Shown: positions 11,301 through 55,770 of the stretch, in pieces
How positions within the stretch are numbered: the stretch's first letter is position 1
Layout of the letters: each line of letters opens with the position of its first letter
Origin: a virus
Lineage: Duplodnaviria > Caudoviricetes
Direction: 5' to 3' (one strand)
DNA: 60,823 nt
IMG/VR virus record: IMGVR_UViG_3300037991_005796
Coordinates: 1 to 60,823 of that record
The notes under the pieces: generated by a model
What the model saw: the letters and a program-made list of their open reading frames with translations, nothing else
Told to the model about the DNA's origin: nothing
Database searches by the model: none
Translations under genes and position numbers: made by a program

Positions 11301-11729
11301 ATGGCAAATTTAAACTACAATATAAGAGAAAGAGTTAAGATAGAAAGTAAAGAGAGAGGCACTTCTTTTAACGTTGATATACCCTCAGCTAGTTACCATG
11401 ACGAAAGGACTTTTAATATATCTTCTGGATCATTTACAGATGTAGTAGACTTTTCTGGAGCTGAAGGAGCTGGACAGTTTGTTAGCAGTAGCCTTTTATA
11501 CTTTAGATTTACTAATCATTCAACAGGTTCAGTGGTATTACAGTTATCTTCTTCAAACGAAACGTTTAACCTATTAGTAGGTTCTTCTGGTAGCTTTATG
11601 TTTGATAATACTTCTTTAACAGGTAGTTTCCAAGATGTATCCACAGGTAGTTTCGATAATATAGTAAAAATTAAAGCTCAACCAGTAGATTCAGTATCAA
11701 CTGTTGAATACTTTTTAGTATCTAAATAA
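11301..11729 (+). CDS. Putative small beta-rich virion protein
   Basis: 142 aa, five [ST]GS motifs, located between capsid and neck genes. Confidence 0.5.
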   Translation: MANLNYNIRERVKIESKERGTSFNVDIPSASYHDERTFNISSGSFTDVVDFSGAEGAGQFVSSSLLYFRFTNHSTGSVVLQLSSSNETFNLLVGSSGSFMFDNTSLTGSFQDVSTGSFDNIVKIKAQPVDSVSTVEYFLVSK

Positions 11730-11735
11730 TAAATT

Positions 11736-12950
11736 ATGGCAAATATAGTAATATATGACGGAACAGCTAATTTCGTAGCAGGTAAAAGTACTCCTTTCGG
11801 GTTTTATGATGATGATTTAGAGTTTCAAAAGGATGCTCCTAAGGTAGCTGAGTATTGTGCTAAAAAATTAGGGTTTCCAATGATGGATGTAGAACTTCAA
11901 TCAGGGTCTTTCTTTGCTGCATTCGAAGAAGCAGTAACTACTTACGGTACTGAAGTATATCAACAACAAGTAGCCGAGTCTTTTGCTAATTTACAGGGAG
12001 GCTTTCAAGGAGAGGCAGTAAATACTACTTTAATTAGACCTTCTTTACAGAATATGGTTAGAATATCTAAGCAATATGGTATGGAAGCAGGAGTTGGAGG
12101 TGAAACTACACTACATACTGGTATGTTACCTATATCTGAATCAGTTCAAGAGTATGATCTACAAGAATGGGCATCTTCACAAGGAGTAACCAGTAGAATT
12201 GAAGTAAGAAAGGTATTTTATGAAGCTCCACCTGCTATTCAAAGGTATTTTGACCCTTATGCAGGTACTGGAACAGGTATACAGTCATTAATGGATGCTT
12301 TTGACTTTGGATCTTACAGTCCTGGTGTTAATTTCTTATTAATGCCTGCTTCTTTTGATATATTAAAGACTCAAGCTATTGAATTCAATGATCAGATAAG
12401 AAGATCAGCGTATTCTTTCGAAATACATAATAACAAATTAAGATTATTTCCTATCCCTAGTGCTTCAGGGTCATTAAAGATAGATTACTATATAGAAAAT
12501 GAAAAAAGATTTGTAGATGATGGTTTAAATATATCATCTAGTGCTGAAATAGGCGGAGGTATAGAAGGATCAGGGGGATCTTACTATTCTAATAGTAACG
12601 GTAACTTAATTACTAATATATCTAATGTACCTACTAATAATCCTATTTATTCTCAAATAAACTCAATAGGTAGACAATGGATATTTAAGTATGCTTCTAC
12701 TTTAGCTAAAGAAATGCTTGCTTATGTAAGAGGTAAGTATCAAACAGTACCAGTTCCTGGTGCAGAAGCTACTTTAAACCAGGCAGATCTATTAGCTGAT
12801 GTAAGAGCTGAAAAAGAAGCATATGTAACTGAGTTAAGAGAAGTATTAAACACAGCATCTATAAACGGTCAATTAGAAAATCAAGCAGCTAATACTAAAT
12901 ACCTTAATGATGCATTAGGTGGAGTACCTATGACTATATATATTGGGTAA
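11736..12950 (+). CDS. Neck/head-tail adaptor (T4 gp13-like)
   Basis: KLGFPMMDVEL N-terminal motif, RGKY...VPG...TLN and C-terminal PMTIYIG. Confidence 0.75.
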   Translation: MANIVIYDGTANFVAGKSTPFGFYDDDLEFQKDAPKVAEYCAKKLGFPMMDVELQSGSFFAAFEEAVTTYGTEVYQQQVAESFANLQGGFQGEAVNTTLIRPSLQNMVRISKQYGMEAGVGGETTLHTGMLPISESVQEYDLQEWASSQGVTSRIEVRKVFYEAPPAIQRYFDPYAGTGTGIQSLMDAFDFGSYSPGVNFLLMPASFDILKTQAIEFNDQIRRSAYSFEIHNNKLRLFPIPSASGSLKIDYYIENEKRFVDDGLNISSSAEIGGGIEGSGGSYYSNSNGNLITNISNVPTNNPIYSQINSIGRQWIFKYASTLAKEMLAYVRGKYQTVPVPGAEATLNQADLLADVRAEKEAYVTELREVLNTASINGQLENQAANTKYLNDALGGVPMTIYIG

Positions 12951-13252
12951 TGAAGTTATTAGATATTATAAAAGAACAGATAAATTTTAGAACATACGAA
13001 GGTATGGTCCAAGTAGTATATGATAATACAGAGAATATACAAAATTTAGCTGAGTTATTACGTGCTTTACCAGGAGTTACAACAGTAACAACAGCTTCTG
13101 GTGATGGAGAAAATAAAGAAACATTAAAAGTAAAGCTTATTTCACAAAAAGAACCTAATGAAGCATTTGAAGCGTTTAAAAATAACGCTATTCAAAAGTA
13201 TGAGTTCATTAAAGATGTTGAAATAGCTGAAAATACTATAGAAGAGAAGTAA
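12950..13252 (+). CDS. Small hypothetical protein with MKLLDIIKE leader
   Basis: 100 aa; LRALPGVTTV suggests a ferredoxin/ACT-like fold; TAATG coupling on both sides. Confidence 0.5.
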   Translation: MKLLDIIKEQINFRTYEGMVQVVYDNTENIQNLAELLRALPGVTTVTTASGDGENKETLKVKLISQKEPNEAFEAFKNNAIQKYEFIKDVEIAENTIEEK

Positions 13253-13752
13253 TGCTATTTGGAAGTAATAGAGATTTTGATTTATTAGTAAATATTAACC
13301 GAGAACTACTAAAAGACATAGTAGAACAAGAGGTAATATTTTATAAATTAAATTTAGATGATACTGAAGCTAATATTTACGGAGAAGCAATGATAAAAAA
13401 CTACTTCGTACCAGTTAAGTTGAATTGTCTAATTACTAGAGGTGATCAAGTAGTAGAAGTAGGTGATTATACCCTTCCTGATCTTCAAAGAGAAGCATCT
13501 TTTGCTTTTATTAGACAAGATTTAGTAGATACTGATGTAATTCCTGAAGTAGGAGATATAATTAACTGGCAAGAAGATTACTATCAAGTAGATACAGTTA
13601 GAGAGAATCAATTATTCGTAGGAAGAGATAAATCTTACAATTTAGCTCAATATGGACATAAATTTGGCTCTTCTTTATCTATTATATGTGATTGTCACAT
13701 GACAAAAAGAGAAACTACTGGTATTGATTTCGAAGGAACAACTTATTTATAA
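13252..13752 (+). CDS. Head closure/neck protein (T4 gp14-like)
   Basis: NIYGEA and PEVGDII motifs; position after the gp13-like gene. Confidence 0.65.
   Translation: MLFGSNRDFDLLVNINRELLKDIVEQEVIFYKLNLDDTEANIYGEAMIKNYFVPVKLNCLITRGDQVVEVGDYTLPDLQREASFAFIRQDLVDTDVIPEVGDIINWQEDYYQVDTVRENQLFVGRDKSYNLAQYGHKFGSSLSIICDCHMTKRETTGIDFEGTTYL
13744..13751 (+). promoter_or_regulatory. TATTTATA motif overlapping a stop codon
   Basis: Octamer only 6 nt before ATG 13758; the short spacing makes it less certain. Confidence 0.35.
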
Positions 13753-13757
13753 TATAA

Positions 13758-14615
13758 ATGGCAGACGATATTAACATAAATCCTATTTCACAAAGACAGC
13801 TTAGCGATAAGCAGAAAAAAGCCTATAAAGCAGGTGCTTTTCAAGGCAGTGTAAAGCAAGTTGATGATAAAAAAGCTAGATCAGCTCAAAAATCAGTAAC
13901 AAATGATGAAAAAGGGTTTGAAGTAGGTTTAAGAGATATAGATGAAGCTATATTTTACTATTTTAATAATGTAATTAAACCAAGCGTAATAAGAAACGGA
14001 GCACAAAAGAATGTTCCTGTCCTATACGGTTCACCGGAAAGATGGAAAGCCGTACAGAGCGACGGTTTTTACCGTGATAGACATGGGAAAATACAACTAC
14101 CCCTACTATTATTAAAAAGAAATAGTATAAGTAAGAATAGATCTTTAGGAAATAAGATGGATGCTAACTTACCTCATAACTATGCTATATACAAAAAGAA
14201 GTGGTCTAAGAAAAATCAATATGATAGATTTTCAATTTTAAATAATAGAACACCTATAAATGAATATCAAGCAGTAGTTATACCAGATTACGTAAATATA
14301 GTATATTCTTGTATGATATTTACAGAATATATAGAACAGATGAATAAAATAGTAGAAAGTATTAACTATGCCTCTGATTCTTACTGGGGAGACCCAGAAA
14401 AATTTAGCTTTAGAGCTATGATAGACGATTTTAATATGGTAACTGAGTTAAATCAGGGATCTGATAGAACGGTAAAGACAGAATTTAATATAAACCTTTT
14501 AGGACATATTATTCCTAATACTATTAATACATTACCGCAAGGATCACTTAAATTTTACGATAAGAGTGCTGTATTATTTGGATTAGAAACAGTTAAAAAT
14601 ATAAATGATTTATAA
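13758..14615 (+). CDS. Tail terminator/sheath stabiliser (T4 gp15-like)
   Basis: VPVLYGSPERW, LPLLLL, PDYVNIVY, QMNKIVE motifs; neck-module position. Confidence 0.7.
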   Translation: MADDININPISQRQLSDKQKKAYKAGAFQGSVKQVDDKKARSAQKSVTNDEKGFEVGLRDIDEAIFYYFNNVIKPSVIRNGAQKNVPVLYGSPERWKAVQSDGFYRDRHGKIQLPLLLLKRNSISKNRSLGNKMDANLPHNYAIYKKKWSKKNQYDRFSILNNRTPINEYQAVVIPDYVNIVYSCMIFTEYIEQMNKIVESINYASDSYWGDPEKFSFRAMIDDFNMVTELNQGSDRTVKTEFNINLLGHIIPNTINTLPQGSLKFYDKSAVLFGLETVKNINDL

Positions 14616-15019
14616 TGGGAAGATTTTCAGCAACAAGAAGTACATCTCTCGCAGTAAGATTTTTTGATAACATAAGTACAACAGGTAATTTAACAACAGA
14701 AGCGATGACACCAGAAGAAAAAGCATACAGTGTAATCAATAATGCTCATACTAGTAATAGTAAGACTGTAAACGTAGATACAGCTGCTAATACATTAACT
14801 TTTGTTTCAACTTCACTAGCAACCCCACCTTCTGGATTTCCAGCACAAACTACTGGAGATTTCACGATATTTATAAATGGAGTAGCTGTCGAAAACGAAG
14901 CAGTAACATCAGTAGCTCAAAGTAGTGCTGATGTAGTAGTAACGCTTAACACAGGATCATTAGATCATGGCTTAGCTACTAACGATGAGTATATGATAAC
15001 AGGAAAATTAGACGCATAA
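14615..15019 (+). CDS. Putative virion structural protein
   Basis: 134 aa Thr/Ser-rich beta-type ORF (IFINGV) preceding the fibre gene. Confidence 0.5.
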   Translation: MGRFSATRSTSLAVRFFDNISTTGNLTTEAMTPEEKAYSVINNAHTSNSKTVNVDTAANTLTFVSTSLATPPSGFPAQTTGDFTIFINGVAVENEAVTSVAQSSADVVVTLNTGSLDHGLATNDEYMITGKLDA

Positions 15020-15020
15020 A

Positions 15021-18000
15021 ATGGCATTAATTTCAAGAAAACAGATATCTGGAGATTTAACCAACGCTAAAGTACTATCAGGTTCTTTAGTTGTAAGTGG
15101 ATCAGAAGTAATAACAGGATCGTTAGATGTTACAGGATCTATCCTTCTTAACGGCGAAGCTGTAGGAGCTGGTGGAGGTGGTGGAGGTAATACTGGATCT
15201 TTAATAACTACAGCATCTAATTCGGGTTCTACTGAAGTAATAACTTTTACCAAAGGAGATGGATCTACTTTTGATTTAACTATAGTAAGTGCTTCATATG
15301 CAGTATCTGCTTCTCATGAAATCGTTAACGAAGTTTCTTCTTCTCATTCAGTAAATGCTGATACAGCATCGTATGTTGTTACATCATTAACAGCATCTTA
15401 TGTACAAGGGTCTAACGTTGATGGTAGCGTAAGTCTTGCAAGCACAGCATCTTATGTAGAATCTGCATCCCACGCAATAAACGCCGATACATCTTCTACA
15501 GCTATTTCTTCTTCTCATGCTATTATTGCTAATACAGCATCCTATGTAGCTTCTACCGACTCTGCTTCATATGCTACTATTGCTGAATATACATCAGAAT
15601 GGACTTTAGGAGCAAATGGAAGCTCAGATTATACTTTTTCAGGGCCAGGCTTTACAGGTTCAGCTAACGACCCAACAATATACCTAGTTAGAGGACAGAA
15701 GTATAAGTTTACTAATACAATGGGAGCTCATCCGTTTAGGATACAGACCACAGTTAATGGTTCTACTGGAACTCAATATAGCAATGGAGTAACTAATAAT
15801 GACGTATCAAATGGTACTTTATTATTTGATGTTCCTATGGATGCACCTGAAACTCTTTATTACCAGTGTACTGCCCATGGTAGTATGGGAGGACCAATAA
15901 GAATATTAGATGAAACTCCAATATCGTCTTCTCATGCAATTAATGCAGATACAGCTTCTACAGCTATTTCTTCTTCATACTCAGTAACGGCTTCTTATGC
16001 AGAAAATAGTAGTGGAGGAGGCTTCCCTCATTCAGGTTCAGCTCAAATAACTGGTAGTTTAGGTATAACCGGTTCGTTAAACGTTACTTCCTCTCTCACA
16101 TCTTCTACAGCTATAACAGCTAACAATATTACAAATGGTTACCCTACTTCTAATCAATGGGGAACTAATTTAGATGGAAGTTACTTTAATAACTTCGATA
16201 ATACTACTCACGTAAGTGAAATTTTAAGATTTATAGCAGGGCTTCTATCCTCTTCAGCTGCCAATCCAACGGCTAATACTAAAACTTATGGTTCTATAAG
16301 TGAAAATAAATCTTTAGGATCAACAGGTACGTTAAGCGGGTATGTTCCTCAAGATCAAGATATAGACGATGTTACTTATTTAATAGATCAAAGTTTTGCT
16401 TCTGTAGGAGGAACTATATTCCCTGGCAAAACAGTATATACATCTACTACTCCTTTAATTTCTTACACTTCAGTGGCTGGAGGTTCAACTACAGTATCAT
16501 CTTCTGTAGATACTCAACTATTTGGTTTAGGAAGTTTAACTAGTGGAGGAGCAACTGATTTTAGAGTAAGTGGATCACATAGCTGGACTTTTTCTAATAC
16601 AGGTTCTAACGCTACTACTTCAACCTCAGCATCAGCAGTAATATTAACCCAAGATTCTTTTGGTACTTCTAACGGTGTAACTTTAGCTAAAATTAATACA
16701 GTTAATCCTGCTGTAATACCAGCAGCATTCCAAGATGGAAAGTTTGCATCGGTATTTAGTAAGAATTTAGTAAACTGGACAGGTGTATCTTTAACTAGTG
16801 TATCTGCTTCCGGTACATATACTATTAATACCACTATAGGTATATCAACAGGGTCTCAAGTAGATTATGATACTAATGCAGCAAGTGAAACTATTTTCTG
16901 GGCTCCAGTTTCAACTATCAATACCAATTTAGGTAGTCAAACTTTAGCTACTGGTTCTACTTCAGTTACAGCCTTAACGTTAACTTCAGGTTCATTATCT
17001 GGAGCTCCTTATGTAACAGGAGGTACTTATAAATTAGATTCAACTGCGAGTGGATTATTTGAACCTTTATATGCAGCTTCTACTACCTTAGGTGATGTAA
17101 CTATAACTTCTCCTACTCCTTCTAATGTAACAGTGACTAATACAGCTGGAGTGGATACTTTATCTACTTCGGGAGGTACTATTCAAACAGCTAATGCAGT
17201 TTATAGTGCAGCAGGCGTTGTAAGAGGCACAGGTGTTGTTCCTTCGAGAACTGATGTATTTCATATAAGTGCTAGTTATACATTAAGCGGAACAGGTACT
17301 ACATTTAGTGAAAGTGGAATTTCAGATTCTGACTTTACATTAGCAATCAAAGGAAGAGATAGAACATCTTCACAATCTACTTTGAAAACAAATACAGTAA
17401 ATATACACACAGCAGGAACATTTGGCCAACCTGCAGCTAGTGGTTCAATGGGATATTTTGGAGGAGGAACTTCTTCTACAACTCTTATAGAATACTTCAG
17501 CAATGAAACTTACAGAAGAGTAATAAGTGCTCCTACTACTTTAACAACAGCTTGGACAAGTACAGATAGAATACCAGCTGGGGACGGAGAAGGACTACAA
17601 GTTAAACCTGGATACTTAGTTAATCCTGAATCTGCAAATGGATATTGGTATATAACTAGTGGATATAGTGCTTCTCACTATAAGTGGTATTTAAGAGAAT
17701 TTACTACTGGAGCAGGGTCTAACCAAAGTACTTTAACTATTAATCTAGATCCTAATTCTTCATCAGACTTTATAGATTTGAATACTACTACTAACAATAA
17801 AATTGCTTTTGGTGTAATATTTGAATCACAATTACCAGCAAATAGTGGTGATGCAAGAACTATAATTTTTGACCCAGTCAAAGGAAACAGTTCTTACGGA
17901 GGTACTTTAGATAATCAAGCAGCTAGTAATCAACTTAATCCGTTTAACGCTAATGTTGATGTACAAGCTGATTTTTCATCTTTAACTAATTCTTCAGGTA

Positions 18001-18131
18001 CTTTAACTTTAGGATTAAATAACGCAGTAGGTCAAACTATAAATGGTACCCACGATAAAATTTGGCTATTAGTAAGATATACTGGTACACCATCAAACAC
18101 ATTAGAAAGAATAACAATATCAGTATCGTAA
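15021..18131 (+). CDS. Long Ser/Thr-rich fibre-like virion protein with cupredoxin-like domain
   Basis: 1036 aa; [ST]GS and [ST]AS[YH] repeats; HPF...YYQCTAHGSM domain at about 15598-15911. Confidence 0.7.
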   Translation: MALISRKQISGDLTNAKVLSGSLVVSGSEVITGSLDVTGSILLNGEAVGAGGGGGGNTGSLITTASNSGSTEVITFTKGDGSTFDLTIVSASYAVSASHEIVNEVSSSHSVNADTASYVVTSLTASYVQGSNVDGSVSLASTASYVESASHAINADTSSTAISSSHAIIANTASYVASTDSASYATIAEYTSEWTLGANGSSDYTFSGPGFTGSANDPTIYLVRGQKYKFTNTMGAHPFRIQTTVNGSTGTQYSNGVTNNDVSNGTLLFDVPMDAPETLYYQCTAHGSMGGPIRILDETPISSSHAINADTASTAISSSYSVTASYAENSSGGGFPHSGSAQITGSLGITGSLNVTSSLTSSTAITANNITNGYPTSNQWGTNLDGSYFNNFDNTTHVSEILRFIAGLLSSSAANPTANTKTYGSISENKSLGSTGTLSGYVPQDQDIDDVTYLIDQSFASVGGTIFPGKTVYTSTTPLISYTSVAGGSTTVSSSVDTQLFGLGSLTSGGATDFRVSGSHSWTFSNTGSNATTSTSASAVILTQDSFGTSNGVTLAKINTVNPAVIPAAFQDGKFASVFSKNLVNWTGVSLTSVSASGTYTINTTIGISTGSQVDYDTNAASETIFWAPVSTINTNLGSQTLATGSTSVTALTLTSGSLSGAPYVTGGTYKLDSTASGLFEPLYAASTTLGDVTITSPTPSNVTVTNTAGVDTLSTSGGTIQTANAVYSAAGVVRGTGVVPSRTDVFHISASYTLSGTGTTFSESGISDSDFTLAIKGRDRTSSQSTLKTNTVNIHTAGTFGQPAASGSMGYFGGGTSSTTLIEYFSNETYRRVISAPTTLTTAWTSTDRIPAGDGEGLQVKPGYLVNPESANGYWYITSGYSASHYKWYLREFTTGAGSNQSTLTINLDPNSSSDFIDLNTTTNNKIAFGVIFESQLPANSGDARTIIFDPVKGNSSYGGTLDNQAASNQLNPFNANVDVQADFSSLTNSSGTLTLGLNNAVGQTINGTHDKIWLLVRYTGTPSNTLERITISVS
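15493..15976 (+). repeat. Exact 22-nt direct repeats flanking the cupredoxin-like domain
   Basis: cttctacagctatttcttcttc at 15493-15514 and 15955-15976 (offset 462 nt, in frame). Confidence 0.85.
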
Positions 18132-18146
18132 TAAAGAGGAATAAAA

Positions 18147-19301
18147 ATGGCATATAATTCAAGTAACAGATCGGAACGACTACTACAAGGCAGAAGGTTT
18201 ACAACTGATGAACTTACTCTAGCTCAAGAAGCGTTTACTGATGTATTCGACCTAGGTGCAGGTGAAATATTTACAGACGACGGTCTAATTCCTACAGGAA
18301 GTTCTCAATTAGCTTATAGTGGATCATCTCAAGATGGTGGTATAGTATCAGGTAGTATAGTTAGTCCTACATTAACTCCTAACGTTGAAGTATTAAAATA
18401 TCACTATAGAAAAAAACTTAAACCAGCAGGTAATGGAAATAGACAAGTTTATTATTTCACAACTGCTGATCCATCCTCTCCTACTGATTCAGTATCATCA
18501 GATCAGCTTATTGAATCAGATCAACAGACAAACTTTATTTCTCCTAAATATATTATCGCTGCTCATAGTGCAAGAAATGCTGAAGCTGTAACTACAGGGT
18601 ATAAAGCAGTAGTATATAAAGACACCTCAGCAACTGCAGGAGGTATTAGTACTGATGCTATCACAGACGATAACTATGTATTCGATTATAAAACTGGGGT
18701 ACTAACTTGGAATAGTGGTGAAGCTCCTTCTTCTTCTCAATACGTATACATGTCAGTATACCAATATGTTGGTAGAACTCTAAGATCTCAAATAGATGAT
18801 GGTACTGTAGCAACTTCTTTAATAAGTAATGGACTTAACAATAGAGTCTTAACTGCAGTAGATAGTTCTTCTATAAATGGAGAAGCTAATTTAACTTTTG
18901 ATGGTTCTACTTTGACTGTTACTGGTGATGCAACTATAACTGGAGATTTAACAGTTCAAGGTGACACTATAGAAAATCAAGTTAGCAATATCAATGTTGA
19001 AGATAAGTTTATACTTCTTAACTCTGGTTCAAGTACTGCTACAGACGAATCTGGTATAATTTTTGGAGGGTCGGAAGGAGCTGCAAATACAGGTTCTGCA
19101 TTATTTTGGGAAGGTGATTTCAACAGTAATGACGGTAGGTTAGCAATAGCATCTGGAGTTGCTGGTAGCTCTACTTCAGCTACAGCTCAATACTATGTAG
19201 CAGGTGTAATATCAGGATCATCCGATATAGCAACAGGTTCTCAAGCCGATCACTACGGAAATATTAGAATAGACGGCGAAGACATCTATATTTATTCATA
19301 A
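18147..19301 (+). CDS. Fibre-like virion protein
   Basis: 384 aa; FDYKTGVL, GEANLTFDGSTLTVTGD and GDLTVQG fibre-shaft motifs; seven [ST]GS. Confidence 0.65.
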   Translation: MAYNSSNRSERLLQGRRFTTDELTLAQEAFTDVFDLGAGEIFTDDGLIPTGSSQLAYSGSSQDGGIVSGSIVSPTLTPNVEVLKYHYRKKLKPAGNGNRQVYYFTTADPSSPTDSVSSDQLIESDQQTNFISPKYIIAAHSARNAEAVTTGYKAVVYKDTSATAGGISTDAITDDNYVFDYKTGVLTWNSGEAPSSSQYVYMSVYQYVGRTLRSQIDDGTVATSLISNGLNNRVLTAVDSSSINGEANLTFDGSTLTVTGDATITGDLTVQGDTIENQVSNINVEDKFILLNSGSSTATDESGIIFGGSEGAANTGSALFWEGDFNSNDGRLAIASGVAGSSTSATAQYYVAGVISGSSDIATGSQADHYGNIRIDGEDIYIYS

Positions 19302-23752: not shown

Positions 23753-23755
23753 ATT

Positions 23756-23944
23756 ATGGCAAGTAGAGAAAAACAAACCGACGCTCAACTTTTAGAAGAA
23801 AGAAAAGTTAAAGCATTAGAGAAAATCGCTGCTTCAGTAGATGCAATAGCTTTCTGGATGGAAGATATAGATAAAGCTGAGTGGAGTGAAAGACTACAAT
23901 GGTATCTTTCTGAGTACTACGAAAAGTTCGTTAAGAAAGACTAG
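23756..23944 (+). CDS. Small hypothetical helical protein
   Basis: 62 aa ORF tightly packed between neighbours. Confidence 0.65.
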   Translation: MASREKQTDAQLLEERKVKALEKIAASVDAIAFWMEDIDKAEWSERLQWYLSEYYEKFVKKD

Positions 23945-33820: not shown

Positions 33821-33822
33821 TT

Positions 33823-42522: not shown

Positions 42523-42524
42523 TT

Positions 42525-47190: not shown

Positions 47191-48004
47191 TAATATTATA
47201 GGAGCTGGATGTAGCTTTATACACGGTTCTAATATATTAGTAGAAAAAGACGGAAAATTTGCAGGAGACAAATTAAGAGCTGCTAAATTAATAGCCGATA
47301 AATTACGTATTCCGGAAATAAATTTAGCTCATCCAGGAGCTTCTAATGATAGAATACTATATAATATATATGAATATTGGTCTAAAAATCAAACATCAAA
47401 CGATCTCTATATAATAGGAACCTCTGGTATTTCTAGACAACTATACTACTCAAACTTAACTGAAGAATTTTGGGATATACATGCTTTTGATTATATGGAC
47501 GATGATACTAGCCTAAAACGATCTGAAAGGTTATTTGGTGAAAATACTCTTGACTTTTATAAAGAGTGGAGAGAAAAAGAGGCTAAGTACCTTTTTAATT
47601 TAGAAGTAGAACAAAAAAAATTATGTTTAAAAATATTAGGTTTAAGTAGTTTTTTAAAATTAAATAATATTAATCATATTTTTTTAAATTCTATTGATGA
47701 TCATATATCTCCTATAAAAGAAAAAATTAATTATTTAAGTTTTAACATACCCAAAAACAGCAATAAAGAATTTAATAAATCAGATTTTTTTAATACTCTA
47801 ACTATTGAAGATTGTTGGTACCATTATTTAAGAATTAAACATGACGAAGTATGTAAGAATTATAACGATACCTCCTACAGAATACCGTACCCTCCATACG
47901 GCAAATGGTTCTGTGGGGGTCATCCTTCTCCTAACGCTCATAAAGATTTAAGTAAAAAAATAATTGAATTCCATAACGAACTTTACCCTGAATACAAAAT
48001 ATGA
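47165..48004 (+). CDS. SGNH/GDSL-like protein
   Basis: AGCSFIHG, NLAHPGASN, IIGTS, GHPSP. Confidence 0.72.
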   Translation: MQQMATKYDNIIGAGCSFIHGSNILVEKDGKFAGDKLRAAKLIADKLRIPEINLAHPGASNDRILYNIYEYWSKNQTSNDLYIIGTSGISRQLYYSNLTEEFWDIHAFDYMDDDTSLKRSERLFGENTLDFYKEWREKEAKYLFNLEVEQKKLCLKILGLSSFLKLNNINHIFLNSIDDHISPIKEKINYLSFNIPKNSNKEFNKSDFFNTLTIEDCWYHYLRIKHDEVCKNYNDTSYRIPYPPYGKWFCGGHPSPNAHKDLSKKIIEFHNELYPEYKI

Positions 48005-48834
48005 AATTTATAACTGAACTTTGTCAAAACCATAATGGTAATAAGGATACTTTAGAGTCTATGATTAGATCTGCTGCTAAACATAGTGATATATTAAAAA
48101 TACAATCAATCAAAGCAGACACGTTAACTAACAGAAAAGAATACGAAGAGTTCAGACCATTTGAAGGTGAGTACAGTAGATTAAAAGGTCTTGAATTGAG
48201 TAAAGAAGACGAAGAATTTTTTATTTTTAAATGTATGGAATATGGAGTAGAATCTATGACTACTATTTTTACACCTAAGCATATAAACTACTTTAACGAA
48301 TTAGGATACTCTAATTTAAAATTATCTGGATACTCAATACCAGCCTTTAAATACGGAGAGTTACTTTCAAATGTAAAGTTTAAAAAACTGTTTTTTTCTA
48401 CCTCTAGTTTAACTTTAGATGAAATAAAAAAAACCATAAACAATTTAAATAATATGGGTATAGATTACTGTATGCTTCAGTGTACTTGCGTTTACCCTAC
48501 ACCACTTAGTAAGTTAAATTTACAAAATGTTAAATTTTATAAAGATATACTACAAGCTAAAGAAGTAGGATTGAGTGATCATTCGAATCCTTATGAAGAT
48601 AAATTACTTTCATCTAAATTAGCTATTTTTCAAGGTATAGATGCTTTAGAAAGACATTTTACTGTATTAAATAAAGACGAAACCAGAGACGGTAAAGTAT
48701 CAATAACTCCAAAAATGTTGGAAAACTTAAAAAAATTTACTAAATTAAGTAAAGAAGAACAGTATGCTGAATTAAATAGCTTTAACGAGCAGCAAATTTT
48801 TAACCACGACTATTACAGAGGAAGATTTAAATGA
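48001..48834 (+). CDS. neuB: NeuB-family ulosonic acid synthase (no C-terminal SAF domain)
   Basis: ELCQNHNG, KIQ, QCTCVYPT, GLSDHS, ERHFT, RDG. Confidence 0.85.
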   Translation: MKFITELCQNHNGNKDTLESMIRSAAKHSDILKIQSIKADTLTNRKEYEEFRPFEGEYSRLKGLELSKEDEEFFIFKCMEYGVESMTTIFTPKHINYFNELGYSNLKLSGYSIPAFKYGELLSNVKFKKLFFSTSSLTLDEIKKTINNLNNMGIDYCMLQCTCVYPTPLSKLNLQNVKFYKDILQAKEVGLSDHSNPYEDKLLSSKLAIFQGIDALERHFTVLNKDETRDGKVSITPKMLENLKKFTKLSKEEQYAELNSFNEQQIFNHDYYRGRFK

Positions 48835-49733
48835 AAGTAAGTTATATTATATGTTATAGTTCTACCTGGCCAATGACTAAGTTCGATCCAACGTCTTGGC
48901 AAGAACCTGATTTAGAATTAGATAAAAAAATTCTTAACCAGACTAATAAACTACTTCAGCAAATTTATACTATACCCGGTGAAAAAGAAATAATACTAAT
49001 AGATAATTCTGGTGACTTTATTCTCGAACTTAATAATAAAAATTTAAAAATTATAGAAGGTTTTGGAGCATTATATAAAAAGTTTGAAGGTGATAAGAAC
49101 AAAATTAAACTACAGTTTAATGAAGAATTAAAAATCTTTAATATCTCAGATAAAATAGAGTATAATATTTTTAAAAGTGATCAAGCTCAAATTACTGCTT
49201 TAGCATATAATCAAGGAATAGCAGCAGCAACAGGAGATTATATTATTATGCAGCATAACGATACTAAGTATTTATTTGATGATTACAGCAAAGAAACAGT
49301 AATATATGATGCTGTAAAAATGTTAATGGAAAATAATTATGAATATCTTTCTATAGACAAAAAAGAAATAAAAAATACTAATTTTAAAGAATATAATAAA
49401 AAGGTAAAGTACTGTGCTGATTGTTATTGGTTTCTATGTAGAAAAGATTTTTTTACTAAGCATAAAATATGGGTTGATTGGAATAGAGGTGATAATAATC
49501 ATTTAGCTACTTTTATGTGTGCGAATAAAAATCTTAAGTACAAACACCTCCCAGGTTTTTATGAAGGACCTAGTAAATTAGAAAAAAAGTTCTGGGATAA
49601 TTATTTCAAATACAGATATAACTATAATAATGGTGGTACTAGATTCCATTTGTTGTATAATAAACCTTTTTTAGAGCATATTAAAGGAGGAACAGGTTTA
49701 AGAAAATTAAAAGATAATGATTTTATTGTGTAA
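48831..49733 (+). CDS. GT2-like glycosyltransferase
   Basis: EIILIDNS, AYNQGIAAATGDYIIMQHND. Confidence 0.7.
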   Translation: MKVSYIICYSSTWPMTKFDPTSWQEPDLELDKKILNQTNKLLQQIYTIPGEKEIILIDNSGDFILELNNKNLKIIEGFGALYKKFEGDKNKIKLQFNEELKIFNISDKIEYNIFKSDQAQITALAYNQGIAAATGDYIIMQHNDTKYLFDDYSKETVIYDAVKMLMENNYEYLSIDKKEIKNTNFKEYNKKVKYCADCYWFLCRKDFFTKHKIWVDWNRGDNNHLATFMCANKNLKYKHLPGFYEGPSKLEKKFWDNYFKYRYNYNNGGTRFHLLYNKPFLEHIKGGTGLRKLKDNDFIV

Positions 49734-50472
49734 CGGAGATAGCTGGACACAAGGAGATAGTCCTGCACAGACGGTTAACTGGGATTCGAATGAATCATTA
49801 GACTGGTATAATATACCTCATAATTTTGGTAGTTACCACTTACCGACTAAATCAGTACAGTTAAAATTTTACGATTCAGAAGTATGGCCTAAGGTTTTAG
49901 GAAGGAATTTAAAAATAGATACTATTAATGCTGGAAGACTAGGAGATGATAATCAAGGAATAACCAGAAGAACTATATACTTAGCCGAAAAGTATACAGC
50001 TTTATATGATCCAAGTAAAATTTTAGTAGTTATAGGATGGTCATCTTGTCTTAGAGAACCAGTATTTGAAATAAATAAAAAGAATAAAATTACACTAAGT
50101 CAAATTAGACCTTTTAATCATTTAAAAGATACTTTACCTTCTTCTATAATATATGCAGATAAATTTGCTTTGACTGTTTATACTTTACAAAGTTATCTTG
50201 AAAATAAAAAAATTAAATTTTTATTTTTTAATGCTTTTGATAATTTTAGTTATAAAGAAAGTAATTTTAAACATTTAATAAAAACTAAATATTGGTTAAA
50301 TAATGATCCTGAAACTAGTCATTTTTATAGTTATTTAAAAGAAAAATATAATATAAAAAATATCGGCGATGAATCAGAAAATATGATATCAGCTCATCCT
50401 ACTGACAAAGCACATACCGAATGGGGTGAATATCTAACTAAATATATAAAAGATAATTATGAGCTCAATTAA
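49717..50472 (+). CDS. SGNH/GDSL-like protein (closest to 28866)
   Basis: NGDSWTQG, VWP, VIGWSS, LFFNAF, SAHP. Confidence 0.72.
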   Translation: MILLCNGDSWTQGDSPAQTVNWDSNESLDWYNIPHNFGSYHLPTKSVQLKFYDSEVWPKVLGRNLKIDTINAGRLGDDNQGITRRTIYLAEKYTALYDPSKILVVIGWSSCLREPVFEINKKNKITLSQIRPFNHLKDTLPSSIIYADKFALTVYTLQSYLENKKIKFLFFNAFDNFSYKESNFKHLIKTKYWLNNDPETSHFYSYLKEKYNIKNIGDESENMISAHPTDKAHTEWGEYLTKYIKDNYELN

Positions 50473-51832
50473 ACTAGTAATATTTGACTTAGATGGAGTT
50501 TTAGTAGAAGCTAAAAATATGCATTTTGATGCTCTGAATGAAGCTTTATCTGAAATAAACCCAGGTTATAAAATAGATTGGTCTGAACATTTAAACAAAT
50601 ATGACGGATTAAAAACTTTTCAAAAACTAGACCTACTTACAAAAGAAAAAGGATTACCAGCAGAAATACATAAACAAGTTTGGGAAAGAAAACAACAACT
50701 TACTTTAGGTAAATTAAGTAGAATAGAACCAGACGGTAATTTAATAGATACATTTGTTGATTTATATAACAGAGGGTTTAAACTTGCTGTTTGCTCAAAT
50801 TCTATAAGAAGAACTTGCCTAACAGTTCTATCTAAATTAGGTTTAATCGAATACTTAGATTTAATCATATCTAATGAAGATGTAAAAAATGGTAAACCTC
50901 ATCCTGAAATGTACTGGAAAGGTATATCAATGATGAGCTGCTTACCGGAAGAAACATTAATAGTAGAAGATTCACCTTACGGTTTACTTGCAGCTGCTAG
51001 AAGTAAGTCTTTTATTTTAAGAGTCAAAAATCCTACAGAAGTAACAACAGAGAATATTATGAATAAAATTAACAGTATAGATTTTGGAGAAAAACAATTA
51101 AAACCTGCATGGAGAGATGATAAGCTAAATATACTTATTCCTATGGCTGGAGCAGGTAAAAGATTTGAACAAGCTGGGTATACATTTCCTAAACCTTTGA
51201 TAGATGTTAAAGGTAGGCCTATGATACAGGTTGTTACAGAAAATTTAAATATAAAAGCTAATTACATTTATGTAGTACAGAAAGAACATAGAGAAAAATA
51301 TAACTTAGATACTTTATTAAATTTAATTACCCCAGGCTGTAAAATAGTCGAGACCGAAGGCGTTACAGAAGGAGCAGCTTGTACTGCATTATTAGCTAAA
51401 AAATATATAGATAATAATAAACCTTTATTTTTTGCTAATTCAGATCAATTTGTAGAATGGGATTCTACTGAATTTTTGTATAAGATGAATGAGACAGATG
51501 CAGACGGTGGAATAGTTACCTTTAAAGCTACTCATCCAAAATGGAGCTTTGCTAAATTAAATAATGAAGGTTTAGTAACAGAAGTAGCAGAGAAGAATCC
51601 TATTTCTGATATAGCTACAGTTGGTTTTTATTACTGGAAAAAAGGTTCTGATTTCGTCAAGTATGCTGAAGAAATGATAGAAAAAGATATTAGAGTAAAT
51701 AATGAATTTTATGTTTGCCCAGTTTTTAATCAAGCTATAGGTGATAAAAAAGAAATAAGAACTTATAATATTTCAAAAATGTGGGGATTAGGAACACCTG
51801 AAGATTTGAAAAACTTTTTAGAGAATTATTAA
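50459..51832 (+). CDS. Bifunctional HAD phosphatase + BcbE-like nucleotidyltransferase
   Basis: FDLDGVL, CSNS, KPHPEMY, VEDS; then PMAGAGKRF, KPLIDV, NSDQ, NNEFYVCP, LGTPE. Confidence 0.88.
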   Translation: MSSIKLVIFDLDGVLVEAKNMHFDALNEALSEINPGYKIDWSEHLNKYDGLKTFQKLDLLTKEKGLPAEIHKQVWERKQQLTLGKLSRIEPDGNLIDTFVDLYNRGFKLAVCSNSIRRTCLTVLSKLGLIEYLDLIISNEDVKNGKPHPEMYWKGISMMSCLPEETLIVEDSPYGLLAAARSKSFILRVKNPTEVTTENIMNKINSIDFGEKQLKPAWRDDKLNILIPMAGAGKRFEQAGYTFPKPLIDVKGRPMIQVVTENLNIKANYIYVVQKEHREKYNLDTLLNLITPGCKIVETEGVTEGAACTALLAKKYIDNNKPLFFANSDQFVEWDSTEFLYKMNETDADGGIVTFKATHPKWSFAKLNNEGLVTEVAEKNPISDIATVGFYYWKKGSDFVKYAEEMIEKDIRVNNEFYVCPVFNQAIGDKKEIRTYNISKMWGLGTPEDLKNFLENY

Positions 51833-52455
51833 TGATTTGGTTTTCAACAATACAGAAATGCGGTTCGTCTTCTTTAAGGACTATACTTAAAAAAGAAAAA
51901 GAAAGTACTGTGGCTAGATTTCATGAACATGGATATTTTTTTAATCCTTGGACCAATGGAGAAGATTCAAAAAAACTATGGTATCAATTTGGATGGAAAA
52001 ATCCTATCTTAGATAATAAAATGCAACCTGATGATAAATTTATAGCTATTGTTAGAAATCCTTTTGATATTTTTGTAAGTTACTTTTTACATTATAGACA
52101 GACAGGGTGGGCTAGTGTAAACTTAGCTCATAATATCGAAACTTTTGATGATTTTTATAATAAGTATGTAGACCCTGATTTTGTATGGCACTTACCGCCT
52201 ATGAAAAAAAGTATGTTTAGTTTTATTTACGATAAAGATGATAATTTAATGATAGATGATTTTTTTAAATTAGAAGAAATAGATAAATTAAATTTATTCC
52301 TTAAAGAAAATAAACTTCCAGAATTACCTTTTGAAAATAAAACTCAAAATAAAAAACATTATAAAACATATTATAGTAAAGAACAGATTGATACTTTAAG
52401 AAAAATTTGGAAAAAAGACTTAGATTATTTTAATTATGATTTTGATATCTCATAG
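51832..52455 (+). CDS. Carbohydrate sulfotransferase (Sulfotransfer_2-like)
   Basis: IQKCGSSS, IVRNPFDIFVSY, YKTYY, DLDYFNYDF. Confidence 0.8.
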   Translation: MIWFSTIQKCGSSSLRTILKKEKESTVARFHEHGYFFNPWTNGEDSKKLWYQFGWKNPILDNKMQPDDKFIAIVRNPFDIFVSYFLHYRQTGWASVNLAHNIETFDDFYNKYVDPDFVWHLPPMKKSMFSFIYDKDDNLMIDDFFKLEEIDKLNLFLKENKLPELPFENKTQNKKHYKTYYSKEQIDTLRKIWKKDLDYFNYDFDIS

Positions 52456-52879
52456 AGGAAATTTAAACGGACCAGATCCTTCTAAAGAAAATAAACCTTC
52501 TTATATAACAAATGCTATAAGGACAGGATTTCAAGTAGAAGTAGATTTTTGGTTTGTTGATAATAAATTTTATTTAGGTCATGATGAACCTGAGTATGAC
52601 GTTCCTTTCGATTGGTTTCAAAATGTTAGTAATAAACTTTGGATACATTGTAAGAATGTAGAAGCAGTTAGTAAATTAGTAGAAGTAGATAGAGGAGGAG
52701 TTTACCTTAATTATTTTTGGCACGAAGAAGATAAAGTTACACTTACTTCAAAAGGATACATATGGGCATACCCAGGAGTAGAGTGTAAGAATGGAATAAA
52801 AGTAATGCCAAAAGAATCGAAAAATAAATTAGGAGAATGTTTAGGAGTGTGCAGTGATAATATAATGGATTATGTATAA
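52436..52879 (+). CDS. Glycerophosphodiester phosphodiesterase/PLC-like protein
   Basis: ISHRGN, EN, VEVD, LGHD, WIHCKN, GVCSD. Confidence 0.75.
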   Translation: MILISHRGNLNGPDPSKENKPSYITNAIRTGFQVEVDFWFVDNKFYLGHDEPEYDVPFDWFQNVSNKLWIHCKNVEAVSKLVEVDRGGVYLNYFWHEEDKVTLTSKGYIWAYPGVECKNGIKVMPKESKNKLGECLGVCSDNIMDYV

Positions 52880-53630
52880 AAGTTTTACAAACATAATTAA
52901 CTCAGGGTGTAGTTTTATGGCATACCCTTGGGAGTGGCAGAATAAGCATAGAGATTCTTACGATTCAACTGTAGATCCTGGAGTAGATAAACAGAACTTA
53001 GCTTATTATTATTCTTGGAGTAACCAATTATCTATAAAAACTAAACTTCCTTTTATCAATTTAGCTTTTCCAGGTAATAGTAATCAAAATGCTATCAATA
53101 CTATAGTCAGGACAGTTCAAAAAAATAACCTAACTAATAGTTTTATAGTATTAGGACTTACCCAGACTATCAGACATACTATTCCTAGTAAGTACGGAGT
53201 TGATGATCCTCTTGTAGTGAAAGTTACTAGTAAACAGGTAAGATCTTCAGAAGCTAAAAATAAAGTAACTGATAATGATATAGAAAATTATAGTAAGTAT
53301 TGGTATAAAGTAAATTATGATGAGGTTTATCAATTAGATAATATTAAAATTCAATTATCGATGTTAAACGAATTCGTTAAAAGTAAGAATAGTAAATTAT
53401 TAGTTATTGATAATCTTTTAAACTTAGAGTTATACAAAAAACAAGAAATAAAAAATTATGAATACTTTTTTTCTTTCGATGATAGGTCTGGTATAAGTTG
53501 GCCGCACTATATAAAGTGGTATGATGATAGCTATGATATAGAATGTCATCCTAACGCTTTTGATCATCGCAAATTTAGTCAACTTTTATACGAAAACTTT
53601 TTTTATAAATCAAAACAAAAATTTATTTAA
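52872..53630 (+). CDS. SGNH/GDSL-like protein
   Basis: SGCSFM, NLAFPGNSN, VLGLT, ECHPN. Confidence 0.72.
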   Translation: MYKSFTNIINSGCSFMAYPWEWQNKHRDSYDSTVDPGVDKQNLAYYYSWSNQLSIKTKLPFINLAFPGNSNQNAINTIVRTVQKNNLTNSFIVLGLTQTIRHTIPSKYGVDDPLVVKVTSKQVRSSEAKNKVTDNDIENYSKYWYKVNYDEVYQLDNIKIQLSMLNEFVKSKNSKLLVIDNLLNLELYKKQEIKNYEYFFSFDDRSGISWPHYIKWYDDSYDIECHPNAFDHRKFSQLLYENFFYKSKQKFI

Positions 53631-53891
53631 ATGTCTAAAAAAATAAAACTTAATCAAGAAGATATAAAAGCTTTAACTGATCTTAATAATCAAAAAAAGA
53701 TTTTAAGAGATAAACTAGTTACTATAGGATTACTAGAATTAGAAGTAGAGGATAAAAAAGACGAAGTTAAAAATTTTCGTAAAAATATAAACGCTATCCA
53801 AAGCGGTTTAGGACAAAAATTAACTCAAATTTATGGTGACGGAACTATAGATTATGATGCAATGGAATTTATTCCTAAAAAATCTTCTTAA
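53631..53891 (+). CDS. Small coiled-coil hypothetical protein
   Basis: 86 aa; C-terminal YGDGTID; precedes sheath. Confidence 0.6.
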   Translation: MSKKIKLNQEDIKALTDLNNQKKILRDKLVTIGLLELEVEDKKDEVKNFRKNINAIQSGLGQKLTQIYGDGTIDYDAMEFIPKKSS

Positions 53892-53917
53892 ACTTAACTT
53901 TTACACTCTTCTTTCGA

Positions 53918-53980
53918 TATTTATATATGTAATTAAGGACCATTTAACTGTAATTGGTTTCCATTTTACCCATATATTTA
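53918..53980 (+). promoter_or_regulatory. Tandem TATTTATA motifs upstream of tail sheath
   Basis: Octamers at 53918-53925 and 53973-53980. Confidence 0.6.
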
Positions 53981-54009
53981 TAATAGACTAAATATAAACT
54001 TAAGAGAAC

Positions 54010-55770
54010 ATGGCAGAACAAATCATCTCTCCAGGTGTATTTCAAAGAGAAAACGATATTTCATTTATTCAACCGGCACCAGTTGAAGTTGGAGCAGCTA
54101 TAATTGGTCCTACTGTAAAAGGTCCCGTTGAAGACCCTACTATAGTAAGATCTTATAATGAGTACGTAAGAGTGTTTGGTGATATATTAGAATTTTCTGG
54201 TTCTAATTACGAATACTTTACATCAATGGCCGCAAAAAATTACTTCGAGCAAGGAGGTAATTCTATATTAGTATCTAGAGTAGTTTCTGGATCATTCACA
54301 AAAGCAGAGAGTACACACATCTCAGCATCAGCTTATAATAGTGTAGAACCATTTACTTTAGGAACTTTAGGTAAAGGAGCAGTATATAATAACGCAACAG
54401 CTTCATCACCCATAACACCTGAACTAAATAGCGATGGGTCTTTAGTTTCTGGATCTAGCGATAACCTTAGATGGGAAATTAACAACGTAAATACTAGCTC
54501 AGGTACTTTCTCACTTTCAGTAAGAAGAGGAGACGATAGAGATAAAGCTAAAGTAATATTAGAAACATTTAACGATCTTTCTTTAGATCCTAATTCACCG
54601 AATTGGATAGCATCAGTAATAGGTACTCAAACTAGATCTATATCAGCTGACGGTACTACTATTATTAGCACAGGAGATCATCCAAATAGATCAAATTATA
54701 TTTATGTAGCTTCTACACCTGCTTCAGGTAGTACTTTAAATTATTTAAAATCTGATGGTATATCAATTGGAAGTTCTTCAATTGACAATACTCCTTACGA
54801 TCAAATTTTACCATTAGAAACTTCTGGATCATTCTACAATGCTACCGGACATACAGCAGTATCTGCTAGTATGAAATTCTGTGAGCATGCAGCGAATACT
54901 TCAAATATGAACCAAGGTATACATAATGATAACTATACAGCTACTATTACCTTACTAGAGAATAAAGATGAATTTAAATATAATATTTTATCTGCTCCTG
55001 GTATTAGTCATGCTGGACATACTTCGGTATTTAATAGTTTAGTATCTTTAGTAGAATCTAGAGGAGATGCAATTTTTGTAGGTGATTTACATGGACACGG
55101 ACAGACAGTATCTACGATAGAAGGACAAGCTAAGAACGTAAATAGTTCTTATGCGGCAACATACTGGCCTTGGGTACAAGTATTATCAGCAACAGGTAAG
55201 AGCTGTTGGGTACCTGCTTCAGTAGTAATTCCTGGAACATATGCATTTACTGACGGAGCTAATGCACCTTGGTTCGCACCAGCTGGATTAGTAAGAGGAG
55301 GCTTAACTGGAGTTATTCAAGCAGAAAGAAGATTAACTAGAACACAAAGAGATACATTATATAGAGGTAAAGTAAATCCAATTGCTACATTCCCTGGAAC
55401 AGGTATTGCAGTATTTGGACAAAAGACTTTACAGACTAAAGCTTCAGCTTTAGATAGAGTAAACGTTAGAAGATTATTAATAGCATTAAAAGAATTTATT
55501 GGTAACCAAGCTAACAATTTAGTATTCGAACAAAATACTGTTGCAACAAGAAATAGTTTCTTAGCTGCAGTTAATCCTTACTTAGACTCAGTTGTACAGA
55601 GACAAGGTCTTTACGCATTCAGAGTAGTAATGGACGATACTAATAATACAGCAGATGTAGTTGATAGAAATCAACTAGTAGGTCAAATATTTATTCAGCC
55701 AACTAAAACAGCAGAATTTATAGTACTTGACTTCGTAGTTGAGCCGACTGGAGCTACATTTGGTAACTAA
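54010..55770 (+). CDS. gp18: Contractile tail sheath protein (gp18-like)
   Basis: SPGVFQREND, GPTVKGP, YAATYWPW, PWFAPAG..RG, FGQKTLQ, DRVNVRRLL, FEQN. Confidence 0.95.
   Translation: MAEQIISPGVFQRENDISFIQPAPVEVGAAIIGPTVKGPVEDPTIVRSYNEYVRVFGDILEFSGSNYEYFTSMAAKNYFEQGGNSILVSRVVSGSFTKAESTHISASAYNSVEPFTLGTLGKGAVYNNATASSPITPELNSDGSLVSGSSDNLRWEINNVNTSSGTFSLSVRRGDDRDKAKVILETFNDLSLDPNSPNWIASVIGTQTRSISADGTTIISTGDHPNRSNYIYVASTPASGSTLNYLKSDGISIGSSSIDNTPYDQILPLETSGSFYNATGHTAVSASMKFCEHAANTSNMNQGIHNDNYTATITLLENKDEFKYNILSAPGISHAGHTSVFNSLVSLVESRGDAIFVGDLHGHGQTVSTIEGQAKNVNSSYAATYWPWVQVLSATGKSCWVPASVVIPGTYAFTDGANAPWFAPAGLVRGGLTGVIQAERRLTRTQRDTLYRGKVNPIATFPGTGIAVFGQKTLQTKASALDRVNVRRLLIALKEFIGNQANNLVFEQNTVATRNSFLAAVNPYLDSVVQRQGLYAFRVVMDDTNNTADVVDRNQLVGQIFIQPTKTAEFIVLDFVVEPTGATFGN

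Follow-up and report, generated by a model that had tools for sequence, protein, structure and literature searches.

The window analyzed here, the whole 60,823-nucleotide IMG/VR record IMGVR_UViG_3300037991_005796, is a 60.8-kb fragment (approximately 30% G+C) of a marine phage, a Far-T4-type myophage, and the subject of this report is the tripeptide [ST]GS (Ser or Thr, then Gly, then Ser), which recurs in its outer virion proteins. The genes run from a T4-type large terminase through portal, prohead protease and a gp23-like capsid protein to neck and fibre genes, followed on their 3' side by an island of glycan genes of about 33 kb and then by the sheath, tube, baseplate hub and tape measure. 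The closest isolate is Flavobacterium phage vB_FspM_immuto (immuto hereafter; host Flavobacterium sp. LMO8; capsid identity of 64%), and at least 8000 metagenomic sheath homologues are found at E ≤ 1e-10. We observe that the tripeptide is enriched beyond composition, that its residue order matters, that it is restricted to outer parts of the virion and that it is found broadly across the clade to which immuto belongs.

Proteins that carry the tripeptide

Eight outer proteins of the window, all encoded on the plus strand, were assessed by comparing observed [ST]GS with composition-preserving shuffles, made either over the whole protein (5000 per protein) or, as a local-composition null, inside segments of 20 or 40 residues (2000 shuffles). 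The most compact carrier is the open reading frame (ORF) starting at 11301 (11301..11729; 142 amino acids [aa]), a small beta-sandwich virion protein between the major capsid protein (MCP) and the neck, which has sites at aa 42, 75, 96, 107 and 115 (nucleotides [nt] 11424-11432, 11523-11531, 11586-11594, 11619-11627 and 11643-11651). Five sites stand against 0.47 expected, a number reached in 0 of 5000 shuffles, and in a family alignment of 19 sequences (the window protein and 18 of 28 proteins found) the SGS at 96-98 is invariant and that at 42-44 nearly so. An AlphaFold2 (AF2) model of modest confidence (predicted local distance difference test, pLDDT, of 66.8) places four of the five sites fully in predicted non-strand segments, with the site at aa 96-98 extending from a loop into strand 98-102 by one residue; Foldseek returned only weak jelly-roll matches for this model.

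The tail sheath (54010..55770; 586 aa) likewise has five sites, at aa 63, 93, 147, 239 and 272 (nt 54196-54204, 54286-54294, 54448-54456, 54724-54732 and 54823-54831), against 0.90 expected (P = 0.0012). The preliminary description of the window had placed all five in the N-terminal half, and we find them all in the variable N-terminal, outer part, upstream of the PF04984/PF17482 core at aa 303-577. The predicted fold agrees with those of solved sheaths, including T4 gp18, and in the AF2 model of low confidence (pLDDT 57.2) the sites fall at one hairpin, two strand starts and two low-confidence loops.

The largest number of sites is found in the tail fibre (15021..18131; 1036 aa), which carries 16 [ST]GS (5.20 expected; P = 0.0002) together with 16 [ST]AS. 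Some of its sites form hexad arrays of the type [ST]GS-x-x-[VIL], at aa 20-43 (nt 15078-15149) and aa 338-355 (nt 16032-16085), the first of which corresponds to a 36-bp tandem repeat at 15070-15139. Residues 51-297 of the fibre are matched by phrog_677 and residues 176-349 by cyanophage fibres. Within this part, a stretch of roughly 100 residues (aa 194-296; 15600-15908) containing YYQCTAHGSMGG is presumably a cupredoxin-like domain; it is 50-68% identical to fibre or baseplate proteins in 341 phage records, almost all of them from marine cyanophages. This domain was the only part of the fibre to give matches in the phage database search, where ORF 18147 gave nothing useful; PDB sequence searches with both proteins gave nothing usable, and megablast with positions 11000-31000 gave no match. 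ORF 18147 (18147..19301; 384 aa) is a fibre-family protein with seven sites against 1.16 expected, seven being reached in 0 of 5000 shuffles. A weak PDB match of its aa 26-108 (18222-18470) to ribosomal protein bL21 chains (E of about 0.01) is probably due to chance.

The remaining four proteins contribute fewer sites. A short fibre (19437..19997; 186 aa) has two, at aa 10 and 20, against 0.10 expected (P = 0.004). It ends in an S74 intramolecular-chaperone domain (PF13884, aa 92-146), a domain that is cut off in other members, so that its mature form, if the chaperone is removed as elsewhere, would be about 90 residues long. The gp13-like head-tail adaptor (11736..12950; 404 aa; phrog_211, Ad2) has two sites (nt 11901-11909 and 12465-12473) against 0.38 expected, which alone is not significant (P = 0.059), and its homologues (n = 7) have a mean of 1.86 sites against 0.35 expected. 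One site each is found in the T-rich ORF 14615 (14615..15019; 134 aa; site at nt 14951-14959; 0.21 expected, P = 0.20) and in the S/T/A-rich ORF 20558 (20558..21271; 237 aa; 0.69 expected), neither of which is enriched.

Our counts reproduce exactly those given in the preliminary description for the named proteins (5 in ORF 11301, 16 in the fibre, 7 in ORF 18147, 2 in ORF 19437, 2 in the gp13-like protein and 5 in the sheath), and the enrichment exceeds composition, with 39 sites in the eight outer proteins against approximately 10 expected. Under the local shuffles the expectation is 10.15 or 9.73, and 39 was reached in 0 of 2000. Order matters, since permuted forms of the same residues are much rarer in these proteins ([ST]GS 39, G[ST]S 12, [ST]SG 10, S[ST]G 11), and the third position is Ser rather than Thr (SGS 23 and TGS 16 versus SGT 4 and TGT 5). 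In a scan of all tripeptides in the S/T/G-rich proteins of the window, SGS ranks first (z = 6.7) and TGS fourth (z = 5.7). S, T and G make up 23-40% of the proteins that carry the motif, which favors chance, composition or a DNA-level signal as the explanation. The whole-protein and local shuffles are nevertheless exceeded, the permuted tripeptides stand at expectation in the relatives described below, and the 39 sites are encoded by 29 distinct 9-mers with diverse codons, which indicates a protein-level signal and not a DNA motif. Composition, local low complexity and a DNA-level motif can thus be set aside, and the probability we leave to explanations of this kind is negligible. As a separate observation, ACA encodes Thr in 12 of the 16 TGS sites, compared with 36% of the Thr codons (118/328) in the same proteins, a skew that is unexplained.

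Known acceptor sequences do not account for the pattern either, as none of them is enriched in the eight outer proteins: N[^P][ST] is found 42 times against 46.1 expected, the glycosaminoglycan-type SG.G 3 times against 3.4, and the Bacteroidota-type D[ST][AILVMT] 14 times against 15.4. Serine-rich-repeat glycoproteins carry long alternating Ser dipeptide (S-x)n tracts; no such tracts are present in the printed sequences, where the sites are isolated tripeptides or hexads.

Elsewhere in the window, the reported absence of [ST]GS from terminase, portal, scaffold, tube and tape measure holds as a count, but it equals what composition predicts: the 15 core proteins together have 2 sites (one each in the MCP and the prohead protease) against 2.72 expected. 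The same applies to the enzymes of the island, for which about one site had been reported; we count one in 40 proteins (20006-53891), and with 2.69 expected this is no avoidance. The frequent [ST]AS and SSS that had also been described are borne out in part, since [ST]AS is enriched in the fibre (16 versus 4.1 expected), where the excess derives from shaft repeats of the SASHA/ASY type, but not elsewhere in the window, and SSS shows no enrichment. The tape-measure protein (58164-60647) has, as a side observation, a peptidase- or endolysin-like domain at aa 605-760 (phrog_23178, phrog_34252).

Breadth and shape of the motif across the clade

The relatives compared were immuto, the IMG/VR contigs G001 to G005 and 80 IMG/VR sheath relatives or loci (L005-L084); completeness is 30-74% for all contigs but immuto. 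In S/T/G-rich proteins the ratio of observed to expected [ST]GS is 3.9 in the window, 3.2 in immuto, 4.7 in G002, 5.0 in G003, 2.35 in G004 and 4.55 in G005. G001 is the sole clade member without enrichment, with a ratio of 0.59 in equally S/T/G-rich fibres and at least three sites in 0 of 142 ORFs. Scanning all tripeptides in the relatives, we find SGS first in G002, second in immuto and G003 and fifth in G004, and TGS first in G003; tandem-repeat units dominate the scans of G005 and G001. The 49 proteins with at least three sites (six genomes) fall into 18 BLAST components, the largest of which is a mosaic fibre network that holds 26 of the 49 and to which ORF 18147 belongs; among the remaining components are those of the sheath, of the ORF 11301 family and of several baseplate-peripheral proteins. 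In immuto, homologous sites are found at aa 42, 75 and 96 of the ORF 11301 homologue, seven sites are present in the sheath (all in the N-terminal half), and the fibre carries hexads at 21, 27 and 33.

The sheath allows the broadest comparison. Mean site number among the 80 IMG/VR relatives is 4.15 against 0.88 expected. In a wider set of 143 superfamily representatives (35-62% identity, large insertions being common), the region that precedes the core has 565 [ST]GS against 150.6 expected (3.75-fold), the conserved core has 31 against 20.7, and control tripeptides in the outer part stay near expectation (G[ST]S 1.03, [ST]SG 0.97, [ST]GT 1.13). The same excess is seen in 209 sheath segments that are not alignable to the window sheath (345 versus 98.7, 3.5-fold), in which permuted tripeptides number 98-112 (ratio of about 1.0). 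Less exposed families stand at or below expectation, with ten tape-measure homologues having 0 sites against 5.5 expected and the MCP family about 0.6 against 0.6.

Outside the clade the excess is weak or absent. T4 has 7 sites against 12.2 expected in 27 structural proteins, with none in the sheath, gp12, wac (fibritin) or Hoc, and 21 T4-like loci have 33 against 72.6 expected; the fibre and sheath of P2 have zero sites. Fibres of cyanophage S-SCSM1, which share a domain with the window fibre, show a weak excess (17 versus 10.3), and RM378, which is partial, has 19 against 8.4. From an IMG/VR search with T4 gp18 came close T4 relatives only, so that no broad background was obtained. As the preliminary description had suspected, selection appears to act on the tripeptide itself, which survives local-composition nulls, is order-specific, and recurs in at least 18 BLAST-unrelated groups from six genomes and in unalignable sheath segments; its confinement to outward-facing proteins and domains is likewise upheld. 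The phages that bear the motif, relatives of immuto, form a large and globally abundant clade of marine Far-T4-type myophages, whose hosts are probably Bacteroidota.

The middle residue gives the motif its shape. In the 143 sheath outer parts, enrichment follows the order G (3.75), A (2.36) and S (1.37), and Asn and Asp are depleted ([ST]NS 0.67, [ST]DS 0.73), so that the position favors small residues and not turn-formers. Alternatives to SGS at homologous sheath columns are SAS, TAS and SSS, as in the column at window residue 62 (SGS 53, SAS 23) and that at residue 264 (SGS 40, SAS 11, TGS 11, TAS 5), and at four of the seven main columns G, A and S exchange with the flanking S/T and S kept. 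[ST]AS therefore behaves as a weaker variant of [ST]GS, and [ST]-[G>A>S]-S, a genuine short motif under selection, is carried by outward-facing virion domains, namely those of the sheath, the fibres, the beta-sandwich protein and, weakly, the neck adaptor.

One way to read such a motif needs no enzyme. A strand-turn-strand or beta-arc element of the type Phi-[ST]-G-S-Phi, left unmodified, could be reused in beta-rich outer domains, spread by tandem duplication (as in the hexads) and by exchange of fibre modules, and then become fixed in the sheath and the ORF 11301 family. Several observations fit this structural idiom: the sites in the AF2 models are mostly non-strand or at strand starts, as far as these low-confidence models go; roughly half of the 363 fibre sites have V, I, L or F at -1 and +1; site spacing in fibres peaks at 6 (22 pairs), with 40 of the 363 sites having a neighbor at exactly ±6; the first hexad array is a DNA tandem repeat; more than half of the site-rich proteins belong to one fibre network; and five homologous columns account for 274 of the 344 sheath sites seen across 82 aligned sequences, with G invariant at three of these columns. 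The likeness to glycine-centered beta-hairpin turns, in which Gly is flanked by Ser or Thr between hydrophobic strands, is plain. In tight turns, however, Asn and Asp are the usual substitutes for glycine, and their depletion together with the order G>A>S argues against a plain glycine turn. A turn preference should also be universal, and T4, P2 and the S/T/G-rich fibres of G001 have no such excess or are depleted. The equal enrichment in unalignable sheath segments and in 18 unrelated groups, and the exchange of G, A and S between conserved flanks, likewise speak against the structural idiom. Hexad periodicity accounts for a minority of sites and for none in the sheath or ORF 11301, and predicted local contexts differ among the sites of these two proteins. 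A common origin of the outer part of the sheath and the ORF 11301 family was rejected (hhalign probability of 0.1%), as was internal duplication in the N-terminal part of the sheath (0.4%). We regard the structural idiom as possible, though on balance somewhat doubtful.

Glycan genes and the search for a reader

The glycan-gene island (21290..53891, plus strand), given here as context from Pfam and NCBIfam hits, encodes a GT2-like glycosyltransferase (GT), two GT7+LamG proteins, radical SAM enzymes, a UDP-Glc dehydrogenase, two sulfotransferases and NeuB, together with cytidylyl- and nucleotidyltransferases, an aminotransferase and methyltransferases. ORF 21290 is a DUF6734 protein, which is often the first island gene beside the fibres. 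Four stretches (33823-36909, 38355-40806, 48001-48834 and 51832-52455) hold the UDP-glucose dehydrogenase, the two GT7 (beta4GalT-like)+LamG proteins, an IspD-like cytidylyltransferase, NeuB, two Sulfotransfer_2 proteins and a weak RXYLT1-like match. The tool-kit of UDP-glucose dehydrogenase, GT7+LamG, NeuB and Sulfotransfer_2 suggests sulfated, acidic, animal-like glycans. Across the 80 loci, the stretch between the fibre genes and a small ORF at 53631, upstream of the sheath, is hypervariable, with inserts absent from some loci and exceeding 10 kb, with different enzyme sets, in others; in several relatives (L052, L080 and L081) the twitch-domain radical SAM protein found in the window at 26735 (NF033640) has five to seven paralogues.

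The preliminary description had taken the motif to be the acceptor of this island's initiating GT and had asked whether it co-varies with the island, which it does not. Loci were scored as lacking an island when a structural gene lies within 2 kb upstream of the sheath and as having one when the insert is at least 4 kb, 39 of the 80 being unclassifiable. Mean sheath site number is 4.5 in the 8 loci without an island and 4.0 in the 33 with one (Mann-Whitney, P = 0.72). The G002 sheath has nine sites with no island at its locus (on a contig only about 30% complete), and L022, L023 and G005 carry an island with homologues of window 21290-26735, have GT7+LamG and radical SAM genes, and have one sheath site each. 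The sheath lineage of G001, G005, L022 and L023 has 0-1 sites. Site positions are fixed while island content varies widely, and immuto keeps the homologous sites without homologues of the island genes. The motif is thus independent of the window's island and should not serve as evidence for the island's role.

Some features of the locus had made an island GT attractive as the reader of the motif: the island lies directly downstream of the motif-rich fibres, on the same strand and inside the late structural block, and the lectin-like domain of the two GT7+LamG proteins could bind a protein or glycan target. In addition, G001 and G005 (L093-L099 and L100-L102) are a natural cassette-loss pair. 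Their DNA identity is 97.7-99.7% over nine of ten aligned segments and 83.7% over the tenth, and G001 is without the 6.6-kb motif-rich fibre block and the 13.6-kb island of G005, between which a 488-bp remnant is shared; it carries other fibre families, and a second fibre locus is replaced between the two as well. No other comparison shows motif and island going together, and physical linkage explains this one equally well, just as the different fibre families of G001 explain its lack of the motif under the structural idiom. Given the missing covariation, the island's own GTs are disfavored as readers, and we hold this version of the glycosylation reading to be very improbable.

The glycan genes of immuto lie elsewhere, in an 11-kb GT cluster at 49-60 kb, and every member studied in depth (the window, immuto, G003, G005 and G001) has glycan clusters, gene sets that are large and change rapidly. 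Part of the immuto cluster (49172-53029; L002/L003) is syntenic with 10949-14769 of G001 (L093) and forms a second glycan cluster, outside the window, which is probably common in the clade. Its head consists of GT4, GT4, a 150-aa protein and GT2 (52-67% identity) beside a PD-(D/E)XK nuclease, and its tail is variable. A relative without GTs was sought as a control and was not found among immuto, G001 and RM378: G001 encodes a TOD1-like protein, two GT2, an epimerase, two GT4 and a PF11397 GT, and RM378 encodes a UDP-galactopyranose mutase homologue. Profiling from immuto found no enzyme family that is present in motif-rich contigs and absent from G001; the families restricted to motif-rich contigs are fibres and two ORFs of about 75 aa. 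This empty search, like the lack of covariation with island presence or type, is in keeping with the structural idiom.

A reader of another kind would leave the same fold-independent, clade-specific and order-specific pattern, be it an enzyme of non-glycan modification (phosphorylation, acylation or sulfation) or a chaperone or decoration protein docking on [ST]-small-S hairpins. The island does encode sulfotransferases, methyltransferases and radical SAM enzymes in addition to GTs. However, neither the immuto blastp search nor family profiling gave a conserved candidate, and glycan clusters are the sole modification-type gene sets in all contigs examined in depth, which leaves a non-glycan reader improbable.

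Two further observations concern G001. In L095 (13631-16483, minus strand), a 2OG-Fe(II) oxygenase (PF13640) and a PF11397 'GlcNAc' glycosyltransferase are encoded two genes apart. In protists, a pathway of prolyl hydroxylase and GlcNAc-transferase modifies Skp1, and by analogy the G001 pair may point to phage protein glycosylation linked through hydroxyproline. In the same contig the large terminase appears as two ORFs (94375-97125; L097) of 386 and 282 aa, 75% and 85% identical to the window terminase at 1174, which lie about 740 bp apart with a 109-aa ORF between them; this may be an intron or homing-endonuclease insertion.

Candidate role of the motif on the virion

A motif that is order-specific, that occurs in unrelated folds and independently acquired insertions and that is absent from T4 and P2 would be explained most simply by a common reader acting in trans. 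As closely examined members of the clade all have glycan-gene clusters, the leading candidate would be a cytoplasmic, serine-directed O-glycosyltransferase that acts on virion proteins before or during assembly. Its acceptor rule would require Ser and not Thr at position 3 and a small residue at position 2, and such a combination would look like the acceptor preference of an enzyme, unlike a preference of backbone geometry. On the evidence of the protein sequences we tentatively favor [ST]GS as a candidate surface motif read by some enzyme, most likely for O-glycosylation, a reading that includes the island GT as a special case. That a reader exists, that it is a GT and which serine it would modify are all inferred; if phage-encoded, the reader is more likely to be found elsewhere in the genome, outside this contig.

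A number of results weigh against an enzymatic reader. The MCP, the most exposed protein, is without enrichment, the T-rich protein 207 of immuto uses [ST]GT (11) over [ST]GS (3), and the motif is not avoided in cytoplasmic enzymes, as the island proteins show. Sheath site number is independent of island presence, and the sheath lineage of L021-L023 lost sites even with an island present. The five sheath columns are inherited, and the other 70 of the 344 sites are at chance level, with no sign of ongoing site turnover; at three of the seven main columns G stays constant between variable flanks, as expected of a structural glycine. The hydrophobic flanks and hexad arrays of the fibre sites point in the same direction. 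As for the enzyme, the window's island proteins have no blastp match in motif-rich immuto (E ≤ 1e-4), the profiling described above gave no family that tracks the motif, and the single set of GTs common to immuto and another contig (GT4-GT4-150 aa-GT2) is found also in motif-poor G001. Between a trans-acting reader and the structural idiom the choice is close.

If these elements are combined, [ST]-[G/A]-S would be a private, serine-directed sequon for O-glycosylation, with a conserved soluble phage transferase adding the first sugar at hairpin tips of sheath, fibres and decoration proteins, and with hypervariable islands (nonulosonic-acid, GT7/LamG, sulfotransferase and multi-copy radical-SAM enzymes) diversifying the glycan. 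The glycan coat would thereby differ from strain to strain on unchanging attachment sites. We consider this full scheme rather unlikely.

The nearest known phenomenon is virion glycosylation in mycobacteriophages, which reportedly encode GTs that glycosylate virion structural proteins in the cytoplasm. To our knowledge, glycosylation of phage-particle proteins is documented for mycobacteriophages only, and we know of no acceptor rule; those phages, moreover, are siphoviruses of actinobacteria, whereas the window belongs to a myophage. In the literature searched, supplementary files aside, neither an [ST]GS sequon nor a glycosylated virion in this clade is described. Bacteroidota, the likely host phylum, have a general O-glycosylation motif whose recognition takes place outside the cytoplasm. 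It is given as (D)(S/T)(A/I/L/V/M/T) (PMC8550257), a sequon of three residues, which is also the length of the candidate motif. The two differ in that the Bacteroidota-type motif is not enriched in the outer proteins of the window. Atypical sequons are known from chlorovirus Vp54, and autotransporter heptosyltransferases act on strand-loop-strand motifs. These systems resemble the one proposed here in having a private sequon, dedicated soluble GTs and targets in surface loops of structural proteins; they differ in residues, linkages and enzyme families, and no homologue of theirs was identified here. Glycine hairpin turns, for their part, accept Asn and Asp and would be expected in all phages, unlike the motif described here with its enriched Ala, depleted Asn and Asp and lack of excess in T4 and P2.

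The signal is stronger and broader than the preliminary description, made from the window alone, could know, and it provides a sharply defined, easily testable sequence pattern as a mark of the outer proteins in a phage group that has thousands of ocean-metagenome relatives. Should it be a structural habit only, it would still be the strongest tripeptide signal in these proteins and a marker of outward-facing domains. If it is a sugar-attachment site, the islands would have a target, glycosylated virion proteins would be predictable from sequence, and questions of host recognition, grazing or immune-like evasion among marine phages could be tested in cultured immuto.

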